Assembly: GCA_026389555.1 (NCBI GenBank)
Contig: JAPLHQ010000072.1
Coordinates: forward strand, 23,215-87,214
Reading direction: 5' to 3'
Origin: Chloroflexota bacterium
GTDB lineage: Bacteria > Chloroflexota > Limnocylindria > Limnocylindrales > Limnocylindraceae
Length of the DNA: 64,000 bases
Made by a program: the position numbers and the translations under genes. Positions 6,111-60,426 of this stretch are shown one piece after another; position 1 is the first letter of the stretch; the number at the start of each line of letters is the position of its first letter. Under the pieces are notes generated by a model, which was not told the DNA's origin, ran no database searches, and saw only the letters and a program-made list of their open reading frames with translations.

Positions 6111-7374
6111 CCCGCTGCAGAGCACCGCGCCTGGGATAGGGGAGCGACTCCGCGCCGCGCGTGAAGCGCGCGGGCTCAGCCTTGAAGCGGTTGCCGCAGA
6201 GTTGCGCATCCGCAGCGTCATCCTCGCCGCAATGGAACGTGAAGACCATGCCGCCTTGCCGGAGCGCGTCTACCTCCTTGGACTCCTTCGGACCTACGCG
6301 CGCTTTCTCGGACTCGATCCGGCGAACGTTGCTGCGAGCTGGGCGGGAGTACCGAGTGCGCCTGCACCGGAGCCGCAAGCGAAGTGGGGTGATGGGAAGG
6401 CTGGGGCGCGAATAGAGAGCGGTCTTCGCCAGTCACTCCGCAACCTCCTCAGCCTCGGTCTGGTCGGTCTCGTTGTGGTCGGAGCGGTCGGGTTCCTCGC
6501 CGCACAAGCGATCCGCTTCGCTAGTCCGCCAGTGATCAGCGTGACGAGCCCAGCGGAAGAGGTGCTCTCCCTTGTGGCTGGTACGCCAGCAACAACAGTG
6601 CGGGGGACAGCGGGGGCTGGAACACAAGTGTTGATCCAGAACGCGATCGGGGACTCAGTCACGACGCAAGCGGACACCTCTGGCATATGGAGCATTGAGG
6701 TTCCCTTGAGCGGTGGGCGCAACGAATTCGACATCAGCGCAGCGGATCCTGCTACCGGTTCGGCAAGCGGCGCTGCGACACGCCGAGTCTTCATCGTCGA
6801 ACTCCCCGCGAACGATGCGCCGCAACTTGACGTGTTGACCCCCACAGCCGGCCTTCGTGTCAGTGGCGGGCCGGTTCCGATCTCACTGACCACCGTGCCG
6901 AGTGGGCAGGTCATGATCGTGGCAACAAGTACCGCCGGCGAAGTGGTCAACAGCTCACTCCCTGCTCAGCCTGATGGCAAGGTGCAGGGCGACCTCCTCC
7001 TCCCCGAAGGGACGTGGCGCATCAGCCTCCAGGTGAGCAGCCCAAGTGGGACGATCAGTGAGGCCCTACGCGATGTTGAGGTTGTCTTTGCGGGAGTGAC
7101 AGTGGTTCTCATAGGGAGCGACACTGGCACCTGGGTACGCGTCTGGATTGATGGCGCAGTTGACCCGAACACGGGACCGAGTGGGATCACCCTTGCGAAG
7201 GGGGAGACTCGAACGATCCGCGGGCTCAGCACGGTAGAGATGCGATTCGGGAACCCACGCGGTGTACTTGTCGCACTCAACGGTCGTATGCTTGGCGAGC
7301 GAGGGACGGCTGGCGTTCCTGAGAGCTGGAGCTTCCGTGCCGATGGGCGCGTGCTCAGCTCAAACCGAAAGTAG
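6094..7374 (+). CDS. RodZ-like protein: N-terminal XRE-type HTH, TM segment, Ig-like region, C-terminal DUF4115-like domain
   Basis: GERLRAAREARGLSLEAVAAELRIRSVILAAME...ERVYLLGLLRTYARFLGLD matches the RodZ HTH_25 region. A hydrophobic TM stretch is followed by a beta-rich extracellular part. Overlaps the ftsK end by 17 nt. Confidence 0.65.
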   Translation: MTASNDPLQSTAPGIGERLRAAREARGLSLEAVAAELRIRSVILAAMEREDHAALPERVYLLGLLRTYARFLGLDPANVAASWAGVPSAPAPEPQAKWGDGKAGARIESGLRQSLRNLLSLGLVGLVVVGAVGFLAAQAIRFASPPVISVTSPAEEVLSLVAGTPATTVRGTAGAGTQVLIQNAIGDSVTTQADTSGIWSIEVPLSGGRNEFDISAADPATGSASGAATRRVFIVELPANDAPQLDVLTPTAGLRVSGGPVPISLTTVPSGQVMIVATSTAGEVVNSSLPAQPDGKVQGDLLLPEGTWRISLQVSSPSGTISEALRDVEVVFAGVTVVLIGSDTGTWVRVWIDGAVDPNTGPSGITLAKGETRTIRGLSTVEMRFGNPRGVLVALNGRMLGERGTAGVPESWSFRADGRVLSSNRK

Positions 7375-7382
7375 GAGGTTGC

Positions 7383-7874
7383 ATGGCGACAGACAACTCG
7401 TTTGATGTGGTATCCGATTTTGATCGCCAGGAGATGAAGAATGCCCTCGATCAGACCCGTCGGGAGATCGCCACACGCTATGACTTCCGTTGCGCAACCG
7501 CCGAGATTGAGGAGGAGAAAGCTGAACTCGTCATCCGCGTGGATGGCGAGCTCCGGCTGAAGGCGCTCCGCGACATCTTGGAGTCGAAGGCGGTCAAGCG
7601 CGGCATTGACCTGCGCACCTTCGGCTGGGGGAAGCCAGAGGCGGCTGGGAGTGAGACGCTTCGGATTCACGTGAAACTTCGTAGCGGCCTTGACGACCCA
7701 ACGGCGAAGAAGGTGGTGAAGGCGATCCGCGACGCTTTCCCGAAGGTAAAGACACAGATTCAAGGCGAAACTGTCCGTGTGACTGGCAAGTCACGCGATG
7801 AGCTGCAAGCGGTGATCGACTTCCTTCGCGCTATGGAGCTGGACCGACCCCTGCAGTTTGAAAACTATCGCTGA
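7383..7874 (+). CDS. yajQ: YajQ/UPF0234 family nucleotide (c-di-GMP)-binding protein
   Basis: 163 aa beginning MATDNSFDVVSDFDRQEMKNALDQTRREIATRYDF. This is the characteristic DUF520/YajQ N-terminus and length. Confidence 0.8.
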   Translation: MATDNSFDVVSDFDRQEMKNALDQTRREIATRYDFRCATAEIEEEKAELVIRVDGELRLKALRDILESKAVKRGIDLRTFGWGKPEAAGSETLRIHVKLRSGLDDPTAKKVVKAIRDAFPKVKTQIQGETVRVTGKSRDELQAVIDFLRAMELDRPLQFENYR

Positions 7875-9414
7875 GGCGAGGCGGGTGACGCGTTCGATCA
7901 ACGAGATCGGAGCCGGGCTCGCCCCATCGCGCCCAGGCTCACCGCTCGTCCTCCCGCTCACCCTTCATATCGTTGGCATCGGCGGCACTGCGGCAACGGG
8001 AGCCGCGCTCCACGCAGCGGCGCTTGGCGCGCTGGTGACCGGGTGTGACAGTCACCTAAGTCGTGAGACCGCTCTCATCCTTGAGGCAGCGGGGGTGAAG
8101 GTGAGCGATGAGAGCGACCTCGCCCCGGCGAGTCGGGCCACCCTTGTTGCGGTCTCAAAGGCGATCACCAGTACACAGCCGGATCACCCGCAACTCCACG
8201 CCGCACGGGCGGCCGGTGTCCCGATCGTCTCACTGCAGCAGGTGATCGCGGATGCCGCTGCGAGCCGCGGAGGGGCACTCCTGGGGGTTGCAGGGACGCA
8301 TGGGAAGACAACCTCCACCGGTTGGCTCCTCGCCGCGCTCCGCGCGTCAGGGCGAGACCCTTCTGCGTTCGTAGGTGGACCACTCCCAGCGGGGCAGGGG
8401 AGCCCAGCAGGCTCACCAGTCCACCTCGGGGGAGAGCAAGGCTTCATCGTGGAGGCAGACGAATACGGAGGAAACTTTGACCCGTACGCCGCAGACGCGG
8501 CCCTGATCCTCAACGTTGACTGGGATCACCCCGACATTTTCGCCGACCGTGCCGCCGCCGTCGCCACATTCGTTGCCTGGGGGGCGCCAGTTCTTCAACA
8601 CGGCGCGCTCGTAGTGAATGTTGGAGATGCTGGTGGTGCCGAGGCGGCCGCGGCGCTTGAGCAGCACGACCGGGGGAACCTCATTCGTTACGCCGTCCGT
8701 TCGCACGGACGCACAGAGACAGTCGCAGATGTCACTGCCGATCTTGAACTCGCCCCTGCGGGAGCGGTGCAACTCAGCAACCTGACGCTGAGTGAGCGAG
8801 CAGGCCAACTCGCCCCTGCGCTGGTTGAGCTGCAGGGGAAGACACTAACGATCGGCCTCCTTGGGGCGCACAACGCGGCGAATGCGCTCGGTGTGGCGAC
8901 CCTTGCCGCGACTTCAGGGGGAACGGGGGTGGGGATCACCGCGGCGCTCGCCGGCTACCCAGGGGTGGGGCGGCGAATGGAGGTGCGCTATGACCAGAAC
9001 GGGTTCACGGTGCTCGACGATTACGGCCACCACCCCACGGCGATTGACGCCACGATCTCCACGGTGCGCCTCCGCTACCCGGGGCGACCCCTCATTCTCG
9101 CTATTGAACCGCTGACCTATCACCGCACCGCAGCACTCCTCCCTGCGCTCGCGCGCTCATGTGCCGCCGCAGACCGGGTCGCAGTTGCCGAGATCTTTGC
9201 CGTCCGCGACACCGACCTGACGATCACGAGTGCTGCGAAGCTTGCCGCCGCGATCAGCGCATTCGGGACCCAGGCGGACGCACCAGGCTCGGTTGAGTCC
9301 ACTGCGGACGCGATCTACGCCGCACTCCCGGAGGGGGCAGTTGTCCTCGTGATGGGTGGGGGGCGCTCTACCGACCTTGCCACTCGACTCGCTGCGGCAC
9401 TCTCCGCGCGCTAG
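7858..9414 (+). CDS. murC: Mur ligase family protein, UDP-N-acetylmuramate--L-alanine ligase (MurC) or Mpl-type recycling ligase
   Basis: HIVGIGGTAATGAAL; GVAGTHGKTTSTGWL (P-loop); VEADEYGGNFD; LNVDWDHPDIF; GAHNAANALGVA; DDYGHHPTAI. Not embedded in a dcw cluster. The start probably lies downstream of 7858, which overlaps yajQ. Confidence 0.65.
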   Translation: MKTIAEARRVTRSINEIGAGLAPSRPGSPLVLPLTLHIVGIGGTAATGAALHAAALGALVTGCDSHLSRETALILEAAGVKVSDESDLAPASRATLVAVSKAITSTQPDHPQLHAARAAGVPIVSLQQVIADAAASRGGALLGVAGTHGKTTSTGWLLAALRASGRDPSAFVGGPLPAGQGSPAGSPVHLGGEQGFIVEADEYGGNFDPYAADAALILNVDWDHPDIFADRAAAVATFVAWGAPVLQHGALVVNVGDAGGAEAAAALEQHDRGNLIRYAVRSHGRTETVADVTADLELAPAGAVQLSNLTLSERAGQLAPALVELQGKTLTIGLLGAHNAANALGVATLAATSGGTGVGITAALAGYPGVGRRMEVRYDQNGFTVLDDYGHHPTAIDATISTVRLRYPGRPLILAIEPLTYHRTAALLPALARSCAAADRVAVAEIFAVRDTDLTITSAAKLAAAISAFGTQADAPGSVESTADAIYAALPEGAVVLVMGGGRSTDLATRLAAALSAR

Positions 9415-11021
9415 CTCCCTTCAGGCCCGCCTGAATACTGATCTGGGCGTGGCGGCTCGCTCCCTGCAACGCGTGCGGCGTGCTCCTGCGCAGCCGGGCT
9501 GACCGGACGGGCGAAGAGTGGGTGCCCCTCTGAGGTGAGACATCGGCCACTCGCAAGATCCCACTGCCAGCCGTGGATGCTGCAGGTGAGGGTCTCGCCA
9601 TCTTCCGTGCCGAAGCGTGTTAGGTCCGCCTTCATATGTGGGCAGCGCCGCTGCACCTGCCAGCCGTTCAGGTCGAAGGTCCCCTCGGTGGGGCCATTCT
9701 CGGCGTAGAAGCCCTCTGCGTACTGGATCCGCGCCACGGAGAGGCACTTGAACCAGGTGTAGAGGTAGTCGTTGTAAGAACCGCGCCTCCAGGCGCTGAA
9801 GCGCAGCGAGAGGAAGAGTGAGTTGACCCAGTCATCGGTCCGCGTCCGGACGAGATGATCGAGGAGAAGGCGGGGGATCGTGAATCGGAAGTCAACGTCG
9901 CGTCCGTCATCAGCGATCACGGCGCGCTCAGGGAAGTCGAGCAGAAGGCTGGTGTCGTCCGTCTGGATGCGGACCGGTCCGCCGATTCCATCGCAAACAC
10001 GCGGCCCGAGCGCCATCAGCGGTTCAAACCACGCTTTCATGTCAGGCAGGAGATCCGTGCGGGAACCCGCCCACGACGCCTTCTCCGCGGCGATGCGTGG
10101 CGCCACGTCCTTTGCGTACGTGCGCAAGTACGCCTCCTTATCGGCAAAGACGCTCTGCACAGACAGTTCGCCCTCTAGATGCTGCACGTCAAACCTTCCG
10201 CTCGCATCGAACGCACCGATGCTCCCAGGGAGCATCAGAACCGCCTGTTGACCTGCCTGTTGCAGATAGTCAACCATCAGGCGCTGATCCGGGAAGATTG
10301 AGTCCTCGGCGTTGTTGACGTCGTTCCACTGGAAGAGCTCGTCATCCAAAAAGCAGGGGGGTCCTGCGGAGGGGATCACGACGCGTGGGCTGATGATCTC
10401 CACGTAGCGAGCGGCACGGGCGAACTGTGCGGTGCGCTTCTTCTTTGCGAGCGCCTCCTTGGCGCGTTCAGGTAGCTCGTAGACCATCGGGTACCAGATG
10501 GCACCGCTGAACTGCAACAGACAGATATCAATCGCCCCCTGGACCAAGAGGCGATCGGGGTCGATCGGCCGGCTGTCGTTCAGGTTGAGCAGGCGCTCTA
10601 CGCCGTCGTCCACCAGGAGGGCAGAGTCACCGATCGGCCCATCCGTTGGCGCTGTGAGCGCCTCCACGACCAGCGTGAGGCCGCCGTGTTGCACCGGAAC
10701 GCCTGAGACCGTCTCAATAAAGCTGCTGAAGCCGAGTCCAGTGAGCGCCTCACGCAGCTCCGGAAGCGGGTAGGCGGGGAGGATGACTGTGGCCTCCTTG
10801 CTGCACCAGCGGGCGAGCCACTCAGGGTCAAAATGATCTCGGTGGAGGTGGCTGATATAGAGATAGTCCGTGGCGCCTAACGCGGCATGATCCAGGCCGT
10901 CGTTCCGCGGGTACGGAAACCAGCCTGCGTAGTACGCCGGGTTGAACCAGGGGTCGCAGAGGATGGAGCCGTGGGCGGTATGAATCTTCACGCCAGCCTG
11001 AGCGATGAATTCGATCCGCAT
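9411..11021 (-). CDS. fusion protein: N-terminal metallo-beta-lactamase-fold domain + C-terminal Rieske [2Fe-2S] domain
   Basis: N-terminus has YISHLHRDHFDPEW (HxHxDH). C-terminus has RCPHMKADLTRFGTEDGETLTCSIHGW, i.e. CxH-x17-CxxH (Rieske). Confidence 0.7.
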   Translation of the reverse strand: MRIEFIAQAGVKIHTAHGSILCDPWFNPAYYAGWFPYPRNDGLDHAALGATDYLYISHLHRDHFDPEWLARWCSKEATVILPAYPLPELREALTGLGFSSFIETVSGVPVQHGGLTLVVEALTAPTDGPIGDSALLVDDGVERLLNLNDSRPIDPDRLLVQGAIDICLLQFSGAIWYPMVYELPERAKEALAKKKRTAQFARAARYVEIISPRVVIPSAGPPCFLDDELFQWNDVNNAEDSIFPDQRLMVDYLQQAGQQAVLMLPGSIGAFDASGRFDVQHLEGELSVQSVFADKEAYLRTYAKDVAPRIAAEKASWAGSRTDLLPDMKAWFEPLMALGPRVCDGIGGPVRIQTDDTSLLLDFPERAVIADDGRDVDFRFTIPRLLLDHLVRTRTDDWVNSLFLSLRFSAWRRGSYNDYLYTWFKCLSVARIQYAEGFYAENGPTEGTFDLNGWQVQRRCPHMKADLTRFGTEDGETLTCSIHGWQWDLASGRCLTSEGHPLFARPVSPAAQEHAARVAGSEPPRPDQYSGGPEGS

Positions 11022-42570: not shown

Positions 42571-43929
42571 CTAGCCGTTTGGCGCGGTGATGCGACGTGA
42601 TGCGCGCGGAAGTGGATGCAGCTCAATCACTTCGCCAGCGGCGTACTCAGCAATCTCTTCTGGCACGACCCCCAAATAGTCGGTCCGCGCCAGCACTGAG
42701 ACCTGATGGCTCCCCTGCTCGCCTGCCAGTCGTACCCGTACGCGACCTAATGGATCGTGCAGCGATGCGCCGTCTTCGTCGCGGAGTGCAGCGAGGCGAA
42801 GGAAGGAGCGCCTCCCGAGCGGACTCTCGACGCGCTCCTCAAGCAGTCCAACAGCTCGTAGCCCGCGTGCCGGTCGTCCGCAGAGCGCCCGAAGGAGTGG
42901 GAGCGCAACCTCAACGCCTACGACAAACGCACTCACCGGATTCCCAGGGAGGCCGATCGCCCAGAGTGCGCCATCGCCGCCAGCGCGCCGTCGACCGAGG
43001 AGGAGTGGCTTCCCGGGTTGAATTGCAAGGCGCCAGACGACGAGCTCAAAGGTCGTTGCGAGCGCTGCACCAACATGATCGTGCGCGCCCACGCTGACTC
43101 CTCCTGTTGTCACCAGCAGGTCAGCCTGCGCGGCGAGCGCGGCAACGACCGCACCGGTTGCCTCGGCCGTATCACCAACATGTGCACGCGCAACGACCTC
43201 GCCTCCTTCCGCAGCAATGAGTGCGGCGAGAGCGGGGCCATTACTGTCGCGAATCCCTCCATCAGCCGCGTCGTTGAGTAGTTCATCACCCGTTGTCAGC
43301 AGTGCAACCCTTGGTCGCCGCACAAGGGAGAGATCCGCTGCACCACTCGAAAAGATGACGGCGAGCAGCCCAGCATCAATCGTCGCACCGGCTTCAGCGA
43401 GAAGACTCCCCACGCGCTGATCCTCGCCGCGTCGGCGAATGTGCGCACCGACTTTGACGCGACCGCTCACCCATACATGCGCTGGAAGCTGCGCTGGGAC
43501 GCGCTGCAGTCGTACTCCGCCGCGATCTGGATCCGCGATGCTGCTCCGCTCCACAGGGATCACTGTTGTGCCACCTTCTGGAATTGGTGCGCCAGTAGCA
43601 ATGCGCTGACACTCTCCATCGCGCAGCGGCGCGGCACTTAGTGCGCGACCTGCAGCCGCATCTCCAACGCAGGCGAGTCGCCGCGGCGCGCCGCTGGACG
43701 CTCCATCCCCATCAGCCAACGTCGTAACCCAGCCATCCATTGCCGAAACATCAAACGGGGGGTGATCAACAGCCGCGTAGAGCGGTTCGGCGAGCGTCCG
43801 CCCGATCAGCGAGGCGGCTGTCTCATCACTAATAGCGATTCGCTCCGCAGGGAGCGGCGTGACCTGCGCCAAGAGACGGGCAAGAAGATCGTCAATGCGC
43901 TCAAGCTCCGCTGGAACCGGCTCGCTCAC
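42571..43929 (-). CDS. moeA: molybdopterin molybdenumtransferase MoeA
   Basis: ...VTPLPAERIAISDETAASLIGRTLAEPLYAAVDHPPFDVSAMDGWV and a GGVSVGAHD MoCF-binding domain. The track start at 44001 overlaps the upstream gene. Alignment to the MoeA N-terminus puts the true start near 43917-43929. Confidence 0.88.
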   Translation of the reverse strand: MSEPVPAELERIDDLLARLLAQVTPLPAERIAISDETAASLIGRTLAEPLYAAVDHPPFDVSAMDGWVTTLADGDGASSGAPRRLACVGDAAAGRALSAAPLRDGECQRIATGAPIPEGGTTVIPVERSSIADPDRGGVRLQRVPAQLPAHVWVSGRVKVGAHIRRRGEDQRVGSLLAEAGATIDAGLLAVIFSSGAADLSLVRRPRVALLTTGDELLNDAADGGIRDSNGPALAALIAAEGGEVVARAHVGDTAEATGAVVAALAAQADLLVTTGGVSVGAHDHVGAALATTFELVVWRLAIQPGKPLLLGRRRAGGDGALWAIGLPGNPVSAFVVGVEVALPLLRALCGRPARGLRAVGLLEERVESPLGRRSFLRLAALRDEDGASLHDPLGRVRVRLAGEQGSHQVSVLARTDYLGVVPEEIAEYAAGEVIELHPLPRASRRITAPNG

Positions 43930-45470
43930 TGAAGGCTCTGGAGCAGAAGGATTGAGGCGACCGCTCCGAGCGGTGCGTTGAGCCAGAGGAATCGGCGCCA
44001 TGCAGCACGGGCCGCCCCCCAGCTTGGCCTCCCACGGAGAAGTGGGAGCACCGAGCAGCCGCTTGCGATCGGAATAGCCGCAGCGAGCTGCATCAGCAGG
44101 TTGGGCTGAGCAAGGAGTGGTAGTGCGGCGAGCAGATAGACGAGCAGAATCATCTGCGGGGTACGGCGCTCCCCAAGCAGTGTTGCGACTGTGGCAATCC
44201 CGCTTCGCTTGTCAGCCGACACGTCTTGCAGCGCGCCAAGCGCATGGCTCGCAACGCCCCAGAGCGCAAGGGCCAGAAGTGGCGCGATCCACGCTGAATC
44301 CAACGTGACGCCGAGGAGGAGCCCTGCGGCCGGCGGGATCAGAAAATGTATTGAGGAGACAGCCGAGTCAAGCAGTGGAACCGCACGCGCCCGCACAAGC
44401 CAGGGAGCGCTGTAGAGCGTTGCAAAGAGGATCGCAATCAGCGGCAGAAGGTTCGCCGGCGCAGGGAGGGCGATCGCCATAATCAGCGCCGGCACCAGTC
44501 CCGCCGCCACGAGCGCAACGCGAAGCGGGGCAAGGTCGCGGCCGCGAAGGAGCGCACCCTCCGCACCACCCTTGCGCGGATTTGCCGCGTCACTGGCACG
44601 GTCGTAGAGATCATTGATGCCGTAGAGGTAGAGGTTGTACCCAGCTCCCCACCAGAGGATCGGAGCAAGCAGCCATCCGCCGAGCGTCTCTCCAGCACCG
44701 GCGGCGAGCACACCTCCAACGAATGGGAGCGCGGTGTTTACCCACGAGATTGGCCGCGCAGCGAGGAAGATCCTCCATGCGCTCCCCTCCCCTAGCAGCA
44801 CCTCTGCACGCAAGCGCAACGCCACACCTGCGAGCCCAACGGCATAAAGCAGATCCTCGACTGGCGCTGCGCCAAGCAAGACGCCACTACGTGGCTCCCC
44901 TGGATACGTCAGCACTCCTAGGTGGCAGAGCACGTTATCGAAGATCAGTGTCAACACGATGAAGACGAACGCAGCGACGCGAGTACCGTGATCGCGCCGT
45001 AGTAGTTGCGCGGCAAGCGCCACCCCCGCTCCGGCAAGCACCCCAGCCGCAACGCTGTATTCAGCGCCACTCAAGAGCGCCAGCAGCAACCCGCCACTCA
45101 GTGCGCCAATGCAGGCATCGAACACGCCGCGAGGAAGACCGAGCGTTACGCCGCTGGAAACTCTCCCCTTCCCAACAGCATCAGCAACAACCACAAGAAG
45201 TGATGTGATGCCGAAGAGGAGGAGTGGCTCTTCAATAGGAAACCCGCGACCGAGAGGGCCAGCGCCAGGGAGGGAGAGCACCGTTGCGCTAGAAGGTGTC
45301 GCAAACCACCCTCGAGCGAGCCCAAGTGTATCCACGAGCAGAAACCCAATCGTCGTTGCAATCACAACCGGAAGTAGCACCTCGCGTCGCGTCTGCCGAC
45401 TCCAGCGCAGCGCAAGGCCACGGATGCCAACGATCGAGCCGATGATTGAAAGCAGATAGAGCGCGCTCAT
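43926..45470 (-). CDS. membrane fusion protein: N-terminal lycopene-cyclase-domain half (CrtYc/Yd-like) + C-terminal UbiA-family prenyltransferase (lycopene elongase-like)
   Basis: N-terminal 110 aa has three TM helices and GFPIEEPLLLFGITSLL (PxEE-xxF cyclase-domain signature). C-terminus has YGINDLYDRASDAANPRKGG (NDxxDxxxD), ALQDVSADKRSGIATVA (DxxxD..G..T) and multiple TM helices. Confidence 0.6.
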   Translation of the reverse strand: MSALYLLSIIGSIVGIRGLALRWSRQTRREVLLPVVIATTIGFLLVDTLGLARGWFATPSSATVLSLPGAGPLGRGFPIEEPLLLFGITSLLVVVADAVGKGRVSSGVTLGLPRGVFDACIGALSGGLLLALLSGAEYSVAAGVLAGAGVALAAQLLRRDHGTRVAAFVFIVLTLIFDNVLCHLGVLTYPGEPRSGVLLGAAPVEDLLYAVGLAGVALRLRAEVLLGEGSAWRIFLAARPISWVNTALPFVGGVLAAGAGETLGGWLLAPILWWGAGYNLYLYGINDLYDRASDAANPRKGGAEGALLRGRDLAPLRVALVAAGLVPALIMAIALPAPANLLPLIAILFATLYSAPWLVRARAVPLLDSAVSSIHFLIPPAAGLLLGVTLDSAWIAPLLALALWGVASHALGALQDVSADKRSGIATVATLLGERRTPQMILLVYLLAALPLLAQPNLLMQLAAAIPIASGCSVLPLLRGRPSWGAARAAWRRFLWLNAPLGAVASILLLQSLQ

Positions 45471-46217
45471 CTATCGCCTCCGTCGTCGTGCGGCACGGAA
45501 GCCGGCCGCCGCGGTAACGACGAGCACAGCACAGAATCCAATCGCCGCCGCCACCCAGAAGGTTTCGGGGTAGAGCTGCACCAGACGATCCGTTGCGGGA
45601 TTAAATGTCCAGGTCCCTGCTGGGAAGAGCAGCTGATGTGCTGCGGTGAACGTTGCATCAAAGGCGAAGAGGAAGGCGCCTCCAACGAGCGCAGCTCCCG
45701 CGCCAAGCAGCACCGCTCCATCGCGAACCCCTTGCAGCGCCCATCGCCTTCGTCGCACGGCGAGCAGAGAGAGGAGAGCAAACGCACCTGCGCCGACCAG
45801 AACGAGCGCACGAAAGAGGACGCCAACATCTACAAGATGTGAGCGTTCAGCAGCGCTCAAGAAGACGTCGTCGCCCAGTTGTGCGTTAAAGGCTCCACCG
45901 AAGAGGAGATCGCGTACGAGCGCATCAGAGAGCGCATACGCAGTCGGTGGTTCAACTCCGAGAAGGGCGGGGGCGCTCGAAAGGTCGAGCAGCGCATGGA
46001 CGACGGGTGGAAGAAGGAAGAGGAGCAGCGTGAGAGCGAGCAGCGCAACCAGCACCACAACGGCCAGCAGCGCTCGCCGCGCGACGCGGCGCAACGCGTT
46101 CACGCGTCGACGAGGACGCGACCCTGCTCCCACCATGACCTGACTGAGAGCGGATCTGGCGCAACTCGTCCGAGCAGGACTGCCGCTCGTGTTACCGCAG
46201 CCTGGAAGTCTCCCCAC
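45471..46217 (-). CDS. DUF1461/TIGR01906-type integral membrane protein (Lit-like, lipoprotein intramolecular transacylase family)
   Basis: TM helix; DLSSAPALLGVEP; FLSAAERSHLVDVGVLF (E..H..DV motif I associate with DUF1461/Lit); a further TM block. Start codon is GTG per the track and the N-terminus is uncertain. Stop abuts the start of the downstream fusion gene. Confidence 0.45.
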   Translation of the reverse strand: MGRLPGCGNTSGSPARTSCARSALSQVMVGAGSRPRRRVNALRRVARRALLAVVVLVALLALTLLLFLLPPVVHALLDLSSAPALLGVEPPTAYALSDALVRDLLFGGAFNAQLGDDVFLSAAERSHLVDVGVLFRALVLVGAGAFALLSLLAVRRRRWALQGVRDGAVLLGAGAALVGGAFLFAFDATFTAAHQLLFPAGTWTFNPATDRLVQLYPETFWVAAAIGFCAVLVVTAAAGFRAARRRRR

Positions 46218-46528
46218 TCGCTCTCCGCGAGTGCCTGAATCCCGGGGTAGCCCGCCGCTGCGAGCAGCTGATGTTCGGATGGGCCGAAGAAGGCGAGATT
46301 CAGGAGCAGTGCCTCATCTCGCCACTCGCCAACATCGGCAAGGGAGGCGTCGGTCTGGTCGGCAAGGGTCTGGCGACGTGTTGGGGTCTCGCTCCGTTCA
46401 AGGAGGAGGCCCGTTGTGAAGATCCCCTGCGCCTCAAGGCGCGCGAGGTGGACCGGCTCGATGCGTGTGAGCTGAACGATCGCTGGCATCAGTACCTCCT
46501 CGCGGCATCGTAGCGCCTCCCCCCTCAC
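46100..46528 (-). CDS. DUF4332 domain protein (tandem HhH-like motifs)
   Basis: LTRIEPVHLARLEAQGIFTTGLLLERSETPTRRQTLADQTDASLADVGEWRDEALLLNLAFFGPSEHQLLAAAGYPGIQALAE fits the DUF4332 two-repeat pattern. Probable start is Met at 46489. Confidence 0.5.
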   Translation of the reverse strand: MRGEALRCREEVLMPAIVQLTRIEPVHLARLEAQGIFTTGLLLERSETPTRRQTLADQTDASLADVGEWRDEALLLNLAFFGPSEHQLLAAAGYPGIQALAESEWGDFQAAVTRAAVLLGRVAPDPLSVRSWWEQGRVLVDA

Positions 46529-46663: not shown

Positions 46664-47407
46664 ATGAGTCCAGAGTTGGGATATCAGTTGGTCTATAACT
46701 TTATGTCCCTCGCCATCGCGGCGATGGGTGCGAGCTTCTTCTTCTTCGTCTCCGCAAGGGGATCGCTGAAGGAAGGGAACCGCATGGCAGTCACGCTGTC
46801 AGCCACTGTTGTGCTGATCGCGTTCTACCACTACGTCCGCATCTTCGACTCGTGGGTCGCCACGGCGGGTGTCGGAAACCCAGGCGCGTTCAACGAGGGC
46901 TACCGCTACGTTGACTGGCTCCTCACGGTGCCACTCCTCGTCGCAGAGCTGATCCTCGTCCTTCGCTTGGACAAGAAGGTTGAGAGCAAGCTGATCCAGC
47001 GAAACGTGCTCTACGCCTTCCTCATGATCGCAACCGGATACATCGGCGAGTTGGATGTCCAGACCTCCGTGGTTCTTGACTCCTCACGCACGATCTGGGG
47101 CGCTATCAGCACGATCTTCTTCGTCCTGATCTTGCGCGACCTCTTCGGTGGGATTGATGCTTCCTTCAAGAAGCAGAGCAAGGAGATCCAGGGGATCTTC
47201 AAGGTACTCCGCGTTGTGCTTATCGCCACGTGGGGTGTCTATCCAATCGCCTATCTCCTTCCAACGATTTCGACCAGCCTCGGCCTGACGGCTGGGGACG
47301 GGCTCGTGCTGAAGCAGATCGGTTACACGATTGCGGACATCCTGGCGAAGCCAGGCTACGGTCTCCTCATCTGGAAGATCGCAACCCTGAAGAACTCAGG
47401 CCGCTAA
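46664..47407 (+). CDS. type-1 microbial rhodopsin, proteorhodopsin/xanthorhodopsin-like outward proton pump (DTE motif)
   Basis: 247 aa, 7 TM. Helix C RYVDWLLTVPLLVAE gives D84/T88/E95 (BR D85/T89/D96 positions). L at the PR-105 tuning position. His56 in AFYHYV (PR His75 equivalent). Helix F ATWGVYPIAY. Helix G TIADILAKPGYGLLIW with counterion D225 and Schiff-base K229. Strong RBS. GC about 56 % against about 68 % in the flanks. Confidence 0.9.
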   Translation: MSPELGYQLVYNFMSLAIAAMGASFFFFVSARGSLKEGNRMAVTLSATVVLIAFYHYVRIFDSWVATAGVGNPGAFNEGYRYVDWLLTVPLLVAELILVLRLDKKVESKLIQRNVLYAFLMIATGYIGELDVQTSVVLDSSRTIWGAISTIFFVLILRDLFGGIDASFKKQSKEIQGIFKVLRVVLIATWGVYPIAYLLPTISTSLGLTAGDGLVLKQIGYTIADILAKPGYGLLIWKIATLKNSGR

Positions 47408-47418
47408 ACAGATCGAAC

Positions 47419-47468
47419 ACGCGACTCGTGTCGCGTAGAAAAGGCCCGGGGGAAACCCCGGGCCTTTT
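47419..47468. terminator. tandem hairpins; bidirectional rho-independent terminator between rhodopsin (+) and tRNA-Pro (-)
   Basis: Hairpin 1 is ACGCGAC-tcgt-GTCGCGT (47419-47436). Hairpin 2 is GGCCCGGGG-GAAA-CCCCGGGCC (47443-47464), flanked by AAAA on the 5' side and TTTT on the 3' side. Confidence 0.75.
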
Positions 47469-47482
47469 CATATCTTGTGATC

Positions 47483-47559
47483 TGGTCGGAGCGACAGGAT
47501 TTGAACCTGCGACCTCTTGCCCCCCAGGCAAGCGCGCTACCAAGCTGCGCTACGCTCCG
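47483..47559 (-). tRNA. tRNA-Pro (anticodon GGG)
   Basis: Reverse complement CGGAGCGTAGCGCAGCTTGGTAGCGCGCTTGCCTGGGGGGCAAGAGGTCGCAGGTTCAAATCCTGTCGCTCCGACCA. C1-G72 is typical of bacterial tRNA-Pro. Anticodon stem CUUGC/GCAAG with loop CUGGGGG. Encoded CCA. Confidence 0.88.
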
Positions 47560-48632: not shown

Positions 48633-50065
48633 CGAGAGCCGCCTCCGGTGCGGCCGCCGCCCTTGCCACGCTCACGACCCTCTTCGGCGGAGCGCTCGCG
48701 CACCACGATCCGGATTGGCGTGCCGTTGAGCGGGTAGCGCTCACGAATCTGATTCTCAAGGAAGCGCTGCCAGCTGAAGTGCACCTGCGCTGCGTTGCGG
48801 GCGAAGAGGACGAAGGTGGGGGGCGGCGTGGCCGCCTGTGCCGCGTAAAGAATCTTCGGTCGCTTACTGCCGCTATGCACCGGCCCCTGCCGAGCGACCG
48901 CCTCGGCGACAAGGCGATTCAACGCGCCTGTTGGGATGCGCAGCTGCCGCGCGTCGGCCGCCGCAATCGCCGCATCAAGCACCTTCGTGGCGCGAAGTCC
49001 GGTCAGCGCAGAGATGGAGACGATCGTCGCAAAGTCAAGGAAGGGCGCCTGGCGGCGAATCAGGCCCATCGCCGTATCAAAGGTGAAGCCGTCCTTATCG
49101 ACCAGGTCCCACTTGTTCATCACAATGACAAGCCCCTTACCAGCGTCGATCACCGAGCCCGCAACATGAAGGTCCTGCGCCTGGAGTCCTGTTGATGCGT
49201 CAATGATCAGCAGGGCCACATCGGCGCGATCAAGTGCGGCGACTGAACGGACGGTGGCGTACTTCTCTGCAACAGGCCCAGAGGCGATCTTGCCACGACG
49301 CTTGATCCCCGCCGTGTCAACGAGTGTGATGTGCCGACCGGCATGTTCAATCTGGTCGTCAATCGCGTCGCGCGTCGTTCCTGGCACATCGCTCACCACC
49401 GTCCGCTCCTCACCGAGGAGCTGGTTCAAGAGGCTCGACTTACCAACGTTAGGGCGGCCAACAATCGCAACCGTTACCTCACCCTCACGTGTCTGCACGC
49501 CGCTATCCGCGGGGAGGCCGCGCAGGCTCTCAATGAGTACGTCGAGCAGGTCGCCCGAGCCGATCCCGTGCTGCGCGCTGACTGGATAAATCGCATCAAA
49601 ACCGAGCGAGGCAAACTCGTGCGAGGCACGCTCGCGATCAATGTTGTCTGCCTTGTTCGCGGCGAGCAGGATCGGCTTCCCGCTCTTGCGCAGCAGTAGC
49701 GCCACCTCGGCGTCGCCTGGGTTTGGGCCGGTTGCAGCATCCACAACTAGGATGATGAGATCGGCGTTTGTTACTGCCATCCGCGCCTGATCCTGTACCG
49801 CAACGTCAATCACGTCTCCCTGCGACGGCTGCATCCCGCCAGTGTCAACGAGACGGAAGCGGAAGCCGTTCCAGTCAGCGATCGCAATCAGTCGGTCACG
49901 TGTTGTTCCTGCGCGATCCTCCACCACGGCGCGGCGCTCGCCAACGAATCGATTGAAGAGCGTACTCTTCCCAACGTTCGGCCGACCGACCAGTGCAACC
50001 AGCGGCAGTCGCTCCTGCGTGATCTCTTCCACCGCGCTCCCAGCGCGTTCCGAGCGCCGGGTCAC
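48629..50065 (-). CDS. der: ribosome-biogenesis GTPase Der (EngA), tandem G-domains + KH-like C-terminus
   Basis: LVALVGRPNVGKSTLFNR and a second P-loop VAIVGRPNVGKSSLLNQL; C-terminal KH-like domain. Confidence 0.93.
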   Translation of the reverse strand: MTRRSERAGSAVEEITQERLPLVALVGRPNVGKSTLFNRFVGERRAVVEDRAGTTRDRLIAIADWNGFRFRLVDTGGMQPSQGDVIDVAVQDQARMAVTNADLIILVVDAATGPNPGDAEVALLLRKSGKPILLAANKADNIDRERASHEFASLGFDAIYPVSAQHGIGSGDLLDVLIESLRGLPADSGVQTREGEVTVAIVGRPNVGKSSLLNQLLGEERTVVSDVPGTTRDAIDDQIEHAGRHITLVDTAGIKRRGKIASGPVAEKYATVRSVAALDRADVALLIIDASTGLQAQDLHVAGSVIDAGKGLVIVMNKWDLVDKDGFTFDTAMGLIRRQAPFLDFATIVSISALTGLRATKVLDAAIAAADARQLRIPTGALNRLVAEAVARQGPVHSGSKRPKILYAAQAATPPPTFVLFARNAAQVHFSWQRFLENQIRERYPLNGTPIRIVVRERSAEEGRERGKGGGRTGGGSR

Positions 50066-51075
50066 GAGGCGTCCGAAGTGCTCAGCGATGTGGTGCGGTA
50101 CTGGGGCGTTGCCGCGGCTGCGAGCGCCTCATGCGCAATCTCCGCCGCCTTCGCCTTCATCCCCTCCGTGCCAGCAAGCTGAGCAATGGTTCGCACGACC
50201 ACCTCAAGGTCTTCAATCGGGGTGCTCGTGCCACCAGTTACCCCCACGCGCTTCACGCCAGCAAACTGCGCCGCATCGGTGAGCTCCTTCGCAGATTCAA
50301 TCTGCACTGCACGCGTCCCATTGATCTCGCAGAGTCGCGTCAGCTCTTTCGTATTGGCGCTCTTGCTCCCGCCAACAACGACCATCAGGTCAACCGCTCG
50401 CGCCGCCTCCAGTGTGTCCTCTTGACGACGGATGGTGACGGGGCAGACGGTGTTGACTACTTTGAGCTCGTGACAGCGTGAGACCATGAAGGCGGCGAGA
50501 CGCTCAAACTTCCATGGCGGTTGCGTTGACTGCGTGATCAGCGCCATCCGCTTTCGGCGCGGGATCTTGACCCAGTCCTCCTCTTCGTCAACAAGGATCG
50601 CGTCCGGCGCGAACCCAAGAAGCCCCACAACTTCCGGGTGGTTCGGCGTTCCAAGGAGGACGATGTCGTACCCCTCATCCACCAGCTTCGCCAGTTCACG
50701 ATGCTCCTGCACCACCCAGGTGCAGGTCCCATCAATCACCTCAAGGCCACGACTTACTGCACGTTCCAGCACTTCAGGGGTAACGCCATGCGCGCGGATC
50801 ACCACCGCCGCACCCTCCTGCACCTGATCGAGGCTCTCAACGTTCTCAATGCCGCGCTGATGCAGGTCAGCAATCAGTCCCTCGTTGTGCACCACGTGGC
50901 CGAGCGTATGGGTCGCCTTCCCCTCCGCACTCGCAAGCTTCGCCTTGTCAATCGCCTCGCGGACGCCATAGCAGACGCCAGTGCGGCGGGCGATACTGAT
51001 GCTCTCAACGCTTCCCATGCGGCGATTATCCCCTAGTCGGCTCTCGGAGTCCCAGCCACGCATCAGACGGCGCAC
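50062..51075 (-). CDS. ispH: 4-hydroxy-3-methylbut-2-enyl diphosphate reductase (IspH/LytB)
   Basis: ISIARRTGVCYGVREAI, GHVVHNEGL, VIRAHGVTPEV, IDGTCTWV (Cys ligands). Probable true start is the internal Met near 51018. Confidence 0.9.
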   Translation of the reverse strand: MRRLMRGWDSESRLGDNRRMGSVESISIARRTGVCYGVREAIDKAKLASAEGKATHTLGHVVHNEGLIADLHQRGIENVESLDQVQEGAAVVIRAHGVTPEVLERAVSRGLEVIDGTCTWVVQEHRELAKLVDEGYDIVLLGTPNHPEVVGLLGFAPDAILVDEEEDWVKIPRRKRMALITQSTQPPWKFERLAAFMVSRCHELKVVNTVCPVTIRRQEDTLEAARAVDLMVVVGGSKSANTKELTRLCEINGTRAVQIESAKELTDAAQFAGVKRVGVTGGTSTPIEDLEVVVRTIAQLAGTEGMKAKAAEIAHEALAAAATPQYRTTSLSTSDAS

Positions 51076-58428: not shown

Positions 58429-60426
58429 CTATCGAGCGCGGCGCGCCCCCCATGCGGCGCGGATCTGGCGTTCAATCCCCGCCTCGTCCAGACCGATCAG
58501 CGTACGCAGCGCTGAGACGCTTCCGTGGTCCACGAAGGCGCCGGCTGGAATGCCGATGCTGAGCAGCGTGGCGCTGATCGGCTCGCCTGTTGCCGCCTGA
58601 TCGGCGGCGAGCGACTCAGCTACCGCACCACCAAATCCGCCCGCGGTGACGCTCTCCTCCAGTGTGACGATCATCTTGCTGCTACGACCGAGGCGTCGAT
58701 AGAGCGCGTCATCAATCGGGCTCGCCCAAATTGCGTTGACAACACCGACGGAGAGGCCGGAACTGCGCAGCTGCTCAGCAACGCGAAGACCACGCTGGAC
58801 GATCGGGCCGAAGCCAAGGATCACAATGTCGCTCCCCTCGGCGAGCGTCTCCGCCTTCCCAACCGGGATCGGACGTGGGTCACGCGGAGGGACGCCCTCA
58901 ATACTGTCGCGTGGATAGTGCAACGCAAATGGATGATCCTGCGCAAGTGCCGTACGGACAAGGGCGCGAAGCTCCTGCTCATCCTTTGGTGAAGCGATGA
59001 CGAGTCGCGGGATCTGGCGCTGTGCGGTGAGCGTGAACATCCCTTGATGGCTGGTGCCATCTTCGCCAACCAAGCCGGCACGGTCCACACCGAAGAGCAC
59101 CGGCTGGTCATTCTGGCAGGCGTCATGGACGATCTGGTCCCAGGCGCGCTGTAGGAAGGTTGAGTAGATCGCAACTACGGGCCGACCACCGCCCATTGCG
59201 ATCCCCGTAGCGGTTGCAACGGCGTGCTGCTCTGCGATCCCAACGTCATAGAAGCGATCCGGATATGCCGCGGCAAACTTGTCGAGACCTGTCCCAGTTG
59301 GCATGCCAGCGGTGATCGCCACGATGCGGCGATCGTCTGCAGCGGCGGCGATCACCTCGGCTGCGAAGAGGGCTGTGTAGTTCGGTCGTTTTGGCGCAGG
59401 TGCCTCTGGTACACCGCCACTCTTCCCGTATGAATCTGTTGGGACGCCAACCTCCATCTTCGGCAGCGCTGCGCCGTGGAAGGTGATCGGATCCGCTTCA
59501 GCAGGACGATACCCACGACCCTTCTGCGTGCGCACATGCACGATTACCGGGCCTGGCATGGCGAAGGCGGCGTTGAAGGCCTCCTCCATCTGCACCCGAT
59601 CATGGCCGTCAAGAACGCCAACATAGGTGATCCCAAGATCCTCAAAGAGGCGCCCTGGCTCTTGCGCGAAGGAGACGACGGAGCGTCGCAAGCTCCTTGA
59701 AAGGCGCAGCAGCTTGTCGCCAATGAGAGGAAGGGATCCGACGAACTTGTCGTAACCGCCCTTGCTCCCCCGCCACGTCTTTGAGAGCTTCACCTTGGAA
59801 AGATACGTTGAGATCGCCCCAACGGTTGGGGAGATAGACATCTCGTTGTCGTTCAGGACGATCAGCATCTTGGTCTGACGATGCCCGATGTCATTAAGTG
59901 CTTCCAGGCTGAGCCCGCTCATCAGCGCGGCGTCGCCCACAACCACCGCAATCTTTTCACTTCCGCCGCGCACGTCACGTGCCAACGCAAGGCCTTGCCC
60001 AATAGAGATGCCCGTCCCCGCATGGCCACCATCAAAGACATCGTGTGGCGACTCTGTACGGCGCGGGAAGCCACCGATTCCACCGAGTTGACGCAGGCTT
60101 CCGAATCGCGCGAGGCGACCGGTGAGGAGCTTATGCGGATAGGCCTGATGTCCAGTGTCAAAGACGATGCGATCCACTGGTGATGCCATCACGTGATGGA
60201 GTGCGATCGTCAGTTCGACCACGCCGAGGCTCGGGCCGAGGTGGCCGCCGGTCACCGCGGTGGTTGCGATGATCGCGGTGCGAAGCTGCTCAGCGATCTG
60301 ATTGAGCTCTGCGCCGGAGAGCCCCTTCAGGCCTTCAGGTCCCTCAAGGCGCGCGAGGAGCGAATCAGCGCCGACCGCGCGCAGTGCTACTCCCTCATCC
60401 ACTCCTGGCTTCGTCACTGGACTCAT
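58429..60426 (-). CDS. dxs: 1-deoxy-D-xylulose-5-phosphate synthase
   Basis: GGHLGPSLGVVELTIALH, GDGALMSGLSLEALN (TPP-binding GDG), pyrimidine-binding domain and transketolase C-terminal domain. Confidence 0.95.
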   Translation of the reverse strand: MSPVTKPGVDEGVALRAVGADSLLARLEGPEGLKGLSGAELNQIAEQLRTAIIATTAVTGGHLGPSLGVVELTIALHHVMASPVDRIVFDTGHQAYPHKLLTGRLARFGSLRQLGGIGGFPRRTESPHDVFDGGHAGTGISIGQGLALARDVRGGSEKIAVVVGDAALMSGLSLEALNDIGHRQTKMLIVLNDNEMSISPTVGAISTYLSKVKLSKTWRGSKGGYDKFVGSLPLIGDKLLRLSRSLRRSVVSFAQEPGRLFEDLGITYVGVLDGHDRVQMEEAFNAAFAMPGPVIVHVRTQKGRGYRPAEADPITFHGAALPKMEVGVPTDSYGKSGGVPEAPAPKRPNYTALFAAEVIAAAADDRRIVAITAGMPTGTGLDKFAAAYPDRFYDVGIAEQHAVATATGIAMGGGRPVVAIYSTFLQRAWDQIVHDACQNDQPVLFGVDRAGLVGEDGTSHQGMFTLTAQRQIPRLVIASPKDEQELRALVRTALAQDHPFALHYPRDSIEGVPPRDPRPIPVGKAETLAEGSDIVILGFGPIVQRGLRVAEQLRSSGLSVGVVNAIWASPIDDALYRRLGRSSKMIVTLEESVTAGGFGGAVAESLAADQAATGEPISATLLSIGIPAGAFVDHGSVSALRTLIGLDEAGIERQIRAAWGARRAR

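Follow-up and report, generated by a model that had tools for sequence, protein, structure and literature searches.

A predicted single-polypeptide C50-carotenoid synthase kept beside a xanthorhodopsin-type proton pump in Limnocylindraceae

Limnocylindraceae (SL56 cluster) are among the abundant freshwater bacterioplankton (PMC13212565), and the literature that we found on the carotenoid side of their phototrophy gives either a general mention of "genes for carotenoid biosynthesis" or nothing (PMC6169038, PMC13212565). A 64,000-nt stretch of contig JAPLHQ010000072.1 from a member of this family (the window, whose numbering is used for all positions below) contains a gene for a 514-aa membrane protein that joins lycopene cyclase-like sequence to a UbiA prenyltransferase domain. 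The gene lies next to a rhodopsin gene and in a chain of Lit-like and molybdenum-cofactor genes, which raises the question of what this fusion protein (source of all residue numbers given for it) makes and with which of its neighbours it works. The analysis described here makes it probable that the protein is a single-polypeptide C50-carotenoid synthase, kept with a xanthorhodopsin-type proton pump, and that its product is used with this pump.

Domain architecture of the fusion protein

The open reading frame (ORF) of the fusion runs on the minus strand from an ATG preceded by a GGAGG Shine-Dalgarno sequence, and full-length homologues with 41-95% identity were found on >60 independent contigs. 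An orthologue with 95% identity belongs to Candidatus Limnocylindrus sp. ZSMar2m-chloro-G89 (Limnocylindria, freshwater SL56 cluster). The ratio of nonsynonymous to synonymous substitution rates (dN/dS) against the 95%-identical orthologue was 0.094 for the first cyclase repeat, 0.090 for the second, and 0.133 for the UbiA domain, and a whole-gene value of 0.11 was obtained against orthologue L006. The fusion gene is real, is under purifying selection, and goes far beyond a chance ORF. An artefact of assembly or gene calling was ruled out because the ORF is unbroken on all these contigs, which come from different samples.

The C-terminal part was assigned to the UbiA family, as a preliminary description of the sequence had proposed. 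Pfam UbiA (PF01040) scored 69.9 bits against a gathering threshold of 34.2 over aa 248-497 (profile positions 3-249 of 250). Both Asp-rich motifs named in that description were located, NDLYDRASD at aa 286-294 and DVSAD at aa 416-420, with N286, D287, D290, D294, D416, and D420 invariant in 56 sequences. A Foldseek search with the AlphaFold2 model returned the UbiA structures 4TQ5/4TQ3, 7BPU, 4OD5, and 8DJK with a probability of 1.0 and target-normalised TM-scores of 0.6-0.67. The top NCBIfam model was NF009608 (200.2 bits), followed by NF010119 (124 bits) and by NF009516 (103 bits), which we take to be the archaeal model typified by the lycopene elongase Lye and whose lower score sets the fusion apart from Lye. 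The models for UbiA, MenA, MqnP, ChlG, and digeranylgeranylglyceryl phosphate (DGGGP) synthase reached at most 26 bits, leaving NF009608 ahead of any non-elongase model by 174 bits. The characterised elongases CrtEb, CrtE2, and LbtBC scored 490, 449, and 418 bits on NF009608, with the next two models ranked as in the fusion. Since all three match it at this level, NF009608 appears to be, in effect, the model of actinobacterial lycopene elongases.

Pairwise comparisons agreed with this assignment: BLASTP aligned aa 234-514 with Corynebacterium glutamicum CrtEb at 38% identity, aa 234-437 with Micrococcus luteus CrtE2 at 42%, and aa 166-445 with residues 42-359 of LbtBC at 35%, the last in one alignment that crosses the cyclase/elongase junction. 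The domain thus groups with carotenoid elongases and not with CtaB, MenA, or UbiA, which the preliminary description had left to be decided. We regard it as a relative of lycopene elongases, for which lycopene prenylation is predicted. In a neighbour-joining tree all Limnocylindria fusions formed one clade, which lay outside a group of UbiA-glycosyltransferase fusions and also outside the actinobacterial clade to which CrtEb, CrtE2, and LbtBC all belong.

The N-terminal part had been described as a single three-helix cyclase half with a PxEE signature and no partner half in the window. The signature was found (FPIEEPLLLF at aa 77-86, with PIEE at aa 78-81), but AlphaFold2 modelling, alignment, and profile comparison together resolved seven helices and two cyclase-domain repeats, the second with a PVED motif of its own at aa 203-206; the partner taken to be missing is aa 1-110 of the same ORF. 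The compact whole-protein model (predicted local distance difference test, pLDDT, 89.8; predicted template modelling score, pTM, 0.88) has helices at 2-23, 29-53, and 80-100 in the first half, an additional one at 112-133, and helices at 137-159, 161-184, and 204-226 in the second half, followed by the UbiA bundle. In an alignment of 16 full-length homologues the invariant residues fell into two sets, F43, L44, D47, G50, R53-F56, P78, E80, and E81 in repeat 1 and F177, D178, P203, E205, D206, and Y209 in repeat 2, and therefore mark two PxE(E/D) half-domains. All catalytic motifs of the fusion are invariant down to 41% identity.

Each repeat resembles one particular subunit of the heterodimeric C50 cyclases. 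The motif variants are subunit-specific, P-x-E-E occurring in repeat 1 and the first subunits and P-x-E-D in repeat 2 and the second subunits. With hhalign, the profile of repeat 1 matched {CrtYe, CrtYg, LbtA} collinearly over the full length (probability 93.7, E = 1.8e-7) and that of repeat 2 matched {CrtYf, CrtYh, LbtB} (probability 98.7, E = 2.4e-16), whereas the cross pairs (repeat 1 with second subunits, repeat 2 with first subunits) were not significant (E = 0.004-0.27). The same pairing was obtained with uncharacterised subunits from Cellulomonas and Nocardioides. BLASTP gave 33% identity between aa 1-81 and Corynebacterium efficiens CrtYe and 35-45% between aa 151-212 and CrtYf/CrtYh. 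The CrtYf profile alignment itself spans aa 161-216 only, and the first helix of CrtYf corresponds to helix 137-159. These comparisons point to a three-part fusion, CrtYe-like, CrtYf-like, and CrtEb-like, rather than a two-part one. Helix 112-133 would restore the membrane topology after the head-to-tail joining of two proteins with three helices each. A Foldseek search of the PDB gave no match to the N-terminal cyclase region, and when the N-terminal 232 aa were used by themselves as query for homologues, all that came back were pieces of this fusion. A tblastn search of plasmids with these 232 aa was likewise negative, and the full-length protein had one plasmid match, on an unannotated Arthrobacter megaplasmid.

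Outside Limnocylindraceae the same three parts were encoded separately. In a scan that took a single genome from each species, all of the approximately 60 actinobacterial loci examined (L023-L085), among them loci of Rhodoluna, Aquiluna, Curtobacterium, Microbacterium, Kocuria, and Paenarthrobacter, had the arrangement crt(E)BI-Y1-Y2-Eb, in which Y1, Y2, and Eb stand for the two cyclase subunits and the elongase; the Rhodoluna and Aquiluna loci with Y1-Y2-Eb were L026, L034, L045, L046, and L053. The nearest unfused homologues, from Cellulomonas bogoriensis and Nocardioides, lie in crtE-crtB-crtI-[117 aa]-[113 aa]-UbiA clusters. A metagenome scan found separate Y1, Y2, and Eb genes (37-44% identity) in other high-GC lineages, directly followed by crtI and crtB (L142, L143, L145, L149, L152, L158, and L161). 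From N- to C-terminus, the domains of the fusion follow the crtYe-crtYf-crtEb gene order of the actinobacterial clusters, and in both scans the full three-part fusion was seen only in metagenome-assembled genomes (MAGs) and contigs of Limnocylindraceae. A profile search of 1.84 billion representative proteins returned three clusters of full-length triple fusions, about ten clusters of two-part LbtBC-like proteins (376-429 aa), and many elongase-glycosyltransferase fusions. Fusion thus seems, from these sequences, to be a recurrent theme around the C50 elongase. The elongase-glycosyltransferase proteins combine UbiA with a glycosyltransferase family 2 (GT2) domain in 545-719 aa (P0063-P0072, P0086-P0105). 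On metagenome contig L145, positions 7246-9891 form an 881-codon stop-free stretch, closely followed by crtI and crtB, that apparently encodes cyclase half 2, an elongase, and one more domain.

Association with the rhodopsin

The neighbouring rhodopsin carries the proton-pump motif D84-T88-E95 (D-T-E). Its best relative in the PDB was xanthorhodopsin (3DDL, E = 1.6e-53), followed by others including Gloeobacter rhodopsin (6NWD) and Kin4B8 (7YTB). Like these rhodopsins, among them the xanthorhodopsin/salinixanthin complex, it conserves the glycine at the carotenoid window: Gly146 (IWGAIST) aligned with Gly156 of xanthorhodopsin (LWGFLST). In xanthorhodopsin, Gly156 replaces a bulky residue and gives room to the ring of the antenna carotenoid. 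The window rhodopsin would by these residues be antenna-competent and may bind a carotenoid that transfers energy to retinal. Mehrshad et al. (2018) reported that salinixanthin-binding residues are conserved in rhodopsins of freshwater Chloroflexi from the CL500-11, Chloroflexia, SL56, and TK10 clusters, 10 of 12 being identical in at least one sequence (PMC6169038). In a 2026 study, which is silent on carotenoids, the rhodopsin is presented as a key gene that Limnocylindraceae gained in connection with their habitat (PMC13212565). An identical (100%) rhodopsin is present in a Chloroflexi MAG at NCBI; our homologue search listed only near-identical Limnocylindrus rhodopsins and gave no clue to a donor lineage. 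A 98% identical rhodopsin (P0278) is encoded on a single Joint Genome Institute (JGI) metagenome contig of 1,179,686 bp, probably a near-complete Limnocylindrus genome.

The preliminary description had noted that the fusion lies beside the rhodopsin, and the pairing proved stronger than it assumed. The rhodopsin adjoins the fusion locus in 18 of the 18 Limnocylindria genome loci with upstream sequence, and in metagenome loci as well, and is within 10 kb of Y1-Y2-Eb in none of the about 60 actinobacterial loci. Two arrangements were found. Most Limnocylindrus and Aquidulcis contigs have tRNA-Pro / rhodopsin <> DUF4332-Lit-fusion (context A), and three contigs (L020, L093, and L094) have cysK / rhodopsin <> fusion-nhaA (context B). 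These three contigs represent the most divergent lineage with the fusion: the L020 protein is 41% identical to that of the window (GC content of L020, 0.60), and the L093 and L094 fusions are 86-87% identical to it; in L020 the rhodopsin and fusion genes are directly adjacent and divergent, 122 bp apart. The neighbourhood of this type holds genes for cysteine synthase, a hexapeptide acyltransferase, NhaA, DinB, a two-component system, and a phosphate-binding protein, and lacks Lit, DUF4332, and molybdenum-cofactor genes in all three contigs.

In the window, tRNA-Pro and the plus-strand rhodopsin gene are followed, after 135 bp, by the minus-strand, translationally coupled series DUF4332, Lit-like gene, fusion, moeA, moaC, and moaB, and most Limnocylindrus and Aquidulcis contigs retain the whole series. 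The junctions given in the preliminary description hold: the Lit-like stop abuts the fusion start (TAG|ATG), and the fusion stop TGA overlaps a GTG in the moeA frame (GTGA), with Pfam domains supporting the identity of moeA and of moaC and moaB after it. As a functional clue, however, this chain fails. In clades with about 50% identity (L003 and L086), moeA and moaC are missing downstream of the fusion, L003 also lacks DUF4332, and the L020 type lacks all of these genes. Because the Lit, DUF4332, and molybdenum-cofactor neighbours are lost in relatives and the rhodopsin is kept, the conserved unit is the rhodopsin plus the fusion, found in two unrelated genomic contexts. For the same reason a functional tie of the fusion to the Lit-like, DUF4332, or molybdenum-cofactor genes was rejected. 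Their adjacency is best explained by a compact genome, coding density being about 95% in this family (supplements of PMC13212565 and PMC6169038).

Several observations concern the surroundings of the pair. In L003 (11567-12049) and L086 (11588-12106), moaB alone remains of moeA, moaC, and moaB, which suggests lineage-specific erosion of molybdenum-cofactor synthesis in the clades about 50% identical. Beyond the stop codon of the rhodopsin gene, positions 47438-47469 form a strong GC-rich hairpin of 14 bp (GAAAAGGCCCGGGG...CCCCGGGCCTTTTC), and after it lies a minus-strand tRNA-Pro(GGG) gene at 47483-47559, which flanks the rhodopsin in all context-A loci checked (L001, L003, and L086). The context-B loci L020 and L093 showed no tRNA gene over their whole length. 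Since the rhodopsin has been reported as an acquired gene, the tRNA-Pro could mark an old insertion site.

Predicted product and competing explanations

Building on the observed domain identities, gene-order collinearity, conserved catalytic motifs, purifying selection, restriction to one lineage, and rhodopsin pairing, we propose the following mechanism. The UbiA domain would act as a CrtEb-type lycopene elongase that transfers a C5 unit from dimethylallyl diphosphate (DMAPP) onto C-2 and C-2' of lycopene; CrtEb or CrtE2 is known to add DMAPP C5 units to lycopene to give flavuxanthin (PMC6393565). An acyclic C50 carotenoid like flavuxanthin or C.p.496 would be the intermediate. Joined by the extra helix, the two half-domains at the N-terminus would form a pseudo-heterodimer, a C50 cyclase that closes the rings; the heterodimers CrtYe/Yf, CrtYg/Yh, and LbtA/B cyclise to decaprenoxanthin, sarcinaxanthin, and C.p.450 (PMC6393565). 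The predicted product is a cyclic C50 carotenoid of one of these types, the ring type not being predictable from sequence. The gene probably arose by in-frame fusion of three adjacent overlapping genes in the order crtYe-crtYf-crtEb. Fusion fixes a 1:1:1 stoichiometry, and the intermediate could pass from elongase to cyclase inside one membrane protein.

A one-protein C50 synthase is proposed because counterparts of all three polypeptides stand in one chain, and use of its product with the pump is proposed because the fusion and the xanthorhodopsin-type pump persist as a divergent gene pair. Of the roles considered for the product, that of a bound antenna or accessory carotenoid is the most likely. 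By analogy, the enzyme may possibly serve instead as a co-regulated branch that competes with retinal for lycopene, or make a chromophore precursor. A more far-reaching version is put forward tentatively: the rhodopsin and the fusion may form a minimal two-gene light-harvesting module in which the C50 carotenoid is either a new antenna at the Gly146 window or the entry to a blh-independent chromophore route, such as has been inferred in Aurantimicrobium and may operate in many "retinal-auxotroph" plankton.

The triple fusion is a new architecture among known C50 carotenoid enzymes, and its link to a rhodopsin had not been noted before. The likeness to LbtBC drawn in the preliminary description was the right precedent, although the present protein is a triple rather than a two-part fusion. 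In Dietzia sp. CQ4, whose LbtA/LbtBC (C50 beta-cyclase plus lycopene elongase) make C.p.450, LbtBC likewise has a cyclase half in frame and N-terminal to the elongase, and both it and the fusion match NF009608 and TIGR03462. LbtA, however, is a separate protein (PMC6393565), whereas here the first subunit is fused through an added helix. The cyclase-elongase linker of LbtBC is soluble and about 50 aa long, compared with a few residues in the Limnocylindraceae fusion, and the Dietzia genes lie in a crt cluster rather than beside a rhodopsin with no crt genes nearby.

C. glutamicum CrtYe/CrtYf/CrtEb and M. luteus CrtE2/CrtYg/CrtYh have the same three functions, with 33-45% identity in every part and the same PxEE/PxED pattern, but are three separate polypeptides; their actinobacterial homologues always accompany crtE-crtB-crtI. 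The Corynebacterium gene order equals the domain order of the fusion, and because the crt genes there overlap by 4 nt (PMC6393565), fusion would need only small changes. Aurantimicrobium minutum, Rhodoluna, and Aquiluna, freshwater plankton with small genomes, similarly combine a xanthorhodopsin-like or actinorhodopsin pump with crtYe/Yf and crtEb (PMC7734400, PMC12422013), but in these bacteria the genes are separate members of a crtB-crtI cluster, which does not adjoin the rhodopsin gene. An opsin is also functionally coupled to a UbiA-type lycopene elongase in Halobacterium salinarum, where bacterio-opsin inhibits Lye (Dummer et al. 2011, as related in PMC6212597). That coupling acts by protein inhibition and not by gene adjacency, and Lye is an elongase/hydratase without a cyclase domain that makes acyclic bacterioruberin.

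Several points weigh against a C50 synthase serving the pump. The window protein stayed below the cut-offs of both cyclase models, Pfam Lycopene_cyc PF18916 (19.9 bits against 27, aa 156-214) and TIGR03462 (33.5 bits against 39.4, in two matched stretches); its L020 orthologue passed both (29.2 and 43.2 bits), and precomputed PF18916 matches are present on several members of the fusion family. On NF009608, the window protein (200.2 bits) and the L020 orthologue (196.3 bits) were both just under the equivalog cut-off of 217 bits. A long branch leads to the fusion clade, which lies outside that of all characterised enzymes, so that the specificity of the fusions could have shifted. The hhalign and BLASTP comparisons of the cyclase halves covered C50-type subunits only. 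The known xanthorhodopsin antennas are 4-keto or 3-hydroxy C40 xanthophylls, we know of no C50 antenna, and the window showed no gene for a ketolase or a hydroxylase. Finally, as the preliminary description had stated, crtE, crtB, and crtI were not found in the window, nor were they found within 10 kb of the fusion in any Limnocylindria locus (tblastn at E = 1e-3; Pfam scans), and the supply of substrate is therefore unproven. Pfam scans of nearly all large ORFs of the window showed only housekeeping genes and no crtE, crtB, or crtI, and neither of two papers on Limnocylindria offers, in its supplement, a carotenoid table that could be used for these bacteria (PMC13212565, PMC6169038).

The predicted product might alternatively supply the chromophore itself, a cyclic C50 carotenoid being cleaved asymmetrically to retinal, or giving rise to a retinal analogue that is prenylated, independently of blh, as hypothesised for A. 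minutum. Nakajima et al. (2020) found that this bacterium, with a xanthorhodopsin-like pump and without blh and diox1, makes retinal; it has crtYe/Yf and crtEb in place of crtYc/Yd, and cleavage of a cyclic C50 carotenoid was proposed (PMC7734400). Most Rhodoluna and Aquiluna genomes share its gene pattern (PMC12422013), and rhodopsin-bearing Chloroflexi also lack blh according to the former study (PMC7734400). The physical pairing of rhodopsin and C50 genes in Limnocylindraceae would fit such a supply, as would the result that no Blh-family match was present among the Pfam annotations around the pair or among the scanned window ORFs, the rest of the genome lying outside this search. No cleavage enzyme has been identified, however, either in the Limnocylindrus loci or in A. 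minutum. Moreover, epsilon or gamma rings would not directly give all-trans retinal, and the binding pocket would presumably have to accommodate the C5 substituent at ring C-2 unless this was removed. We regard chromophore supply as unlikely.

Still less probable is a bifunctional protein at the branch point between retinal and C50 carotenoids, in which the two repeats would be a lycopene beta-cyclase, similar to haloarchaeal CrtY, that makes beta-carotene for retinal while the elongase diverts the remaining lycopene. Haloarchaea do have fused two-repeat cyclases that feed retinal synthesis; the rhodopsin needs retinal, no other cyclase was seen near it, and PF18916 and TIGR03462 do not tell C40 from C50 enzymes. 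In Halobacterium, the elongase Lye that the opsin controls is a competitor of retinal synthesis for lycopene, by the account of Dummer et al. (2011) in PMC6212597. Against this, each repeat pairs specifically with the matching C50 subunit, the parts follow the crtYe-crtYf-crtEb order, and the alignment with LbtBC runs through the cyclase/elongase junction. The fusion of enzymes that compete for one substrate would be unprecedented, whereas LbtBC joins consecutive enzymes (PMC6393565), and a C50 cyclase acting on lycopene has no established case and is stated as an open matter (PMC7734400).

An unrelated membrane prenyltransferase with a quinone, haem, or lipid acceptor, working with the Lit-like or molybdenum-cofactor genes and lying near the rhodopsin by coincidence in a compact genome, would accord with the translational coupling to the Lit-like gene and moeA, the lack of carotenoid backbone genes nearby, and the high coding density, but is very improbable given the scores of at most 26 bits for other UbiA-family models against 200 for the elongase model, the motifs of both cyclase halves kept under purifying selection, and the dispensability of Lit, DUF4332, moeA, and moaC where the rhodopsin is not dispensable.

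For the C50 synthase that we favour, one gene predicted to turn lycopene into a cyclic C50 pigment would be a handy part for pathway engineering. Its strict pairing with the rhodopsin bears on C50 carotenoids as rhodopsin antennas and on the chromophore source of rhodopsin bacteria that lack blh. A C50 antenna, if true, would be new, and the importance of the locus would rise sharply if the product proved to be an antenna or a chromophore precursor.

Neighbouring genes and further features of the window

The features of the locus are listed in Table 1. The DUF4332 and Lit-like genes are translationally coupled to each other through a GTGA overlap. The 135-bp region that separates them from the rhodopsin gene was searched for a sigma-70 consensus or sigma-70-like promoter, and none was found.

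Table 1. Features of the rhodopsin-fusion locus in the 64,000-nt window
Feature	Position	Strand	Evidence
Fusion gene: cyclase half 1, linker helix, cyclase half 2, and lycopene-elongase-type UbiA domain	43926..45470	-	ORF, full-length homologues, AlphaFold2 model, dN/dS against L006
Cyclase repeat 1, CrtYe/CrtYg/LbtA type, aa 1-110, three helices; PIEE motif 45228-45239	45141..45470	-	hhalign, invariant residues
Extra hydrophobic helix joining both three-helix halves, aa 111-135	45066..45140	-	AlphaFold2 helix 112-133; without counterpart in separate subunits
Cyclase repeat 2, CrtYf/CrtYh/LbtB type, aa 136-232, three helices; PVED motif 44853-44864	44775..45065	-	hhalign, BLASTP, invariant residues
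UbiA prenyltransferase domain, lycopene-elongase clade, aa 233-514; NDLYDRASD 44589-44615, DVSAD 44211-44225	43926..44774	-	Pfam, NF009608, BLASTP, Foldseek
Xanthorhodopsin-type proton-pump rhodopsin, divergently transcribed partner	46664..47407	+	Pfam Bac_rhodopsin 138 bits; best solved structure 3DDL
Intergenic region common to rhodopsin and DUF4332-Lit-fusion operon, 135 bp; candidate bidirectional control region	46529..46663		Gene coordinates; regulatory role would follow from position
DUF4332 protein, first gene of divergent operon	46100..46528	-	Pfam DUF4332 46 bits; outside conserved module
Lit-like/TIGR01906 membrane protein, probable GTG start at 46103	45471..46103	-	Pfam Lit 64 bits; same operon, outside conserved module
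moeA, probable GTG start overlapping fusion stop codon, translationally coupled	42571..43929	-	Pfam domains and GTGA junction

The AT skew on the plus strand reached +0.30 at 44001-46000, by far the highest value of the window; this peak fits the two minus-strand genes for very hydrophobic membrane proteins because their second codon positions are T-rich. Two genes of the methylerythritol phosphate (MEP) pathway lie in the vicinity of the rhodopsin-fusion pair, one for IspH/LytB (50062-51075, about 3 kb from the rhodopsin), the enzyme that makes the DMAPP used by elongases, and one for DXS (58429-60426, about 11 kb away), which is preceded by xseA and xseB. No gene for IspA or geranylgeranyl diphosphate (GGPP) synthase was found between xseA/xseB and dxs, and the nearness of the MEP-pathway genes to the rhodopsin-fusion pair is probably coincidental.

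Two database records came to notice by their names. The record of L017 (CAMAXG010000001.1), titled "Thermoflexus hugenholtzii JAD2 isolate MH-08apr19-222", shows the rhodopsin-DUF4332-Lit-fusion synteny typical of Limnocylindrus, with a rhodopsin 84% identical, and for this synteny its organism name looks wrong. The name of L030, labelled "uncultured Sphaerobacteraceae", is likewise doubtful, as the locus carries a crtB-crtI-Y1-Y2-Eb cluster of the actinobacterial type. Elsewhere in the window, positions 9411-11021 encode a 536-aa protein in which an SCP2 domain similar to Rv3818 and a Rieske [2Fe-2S] domain occur together.

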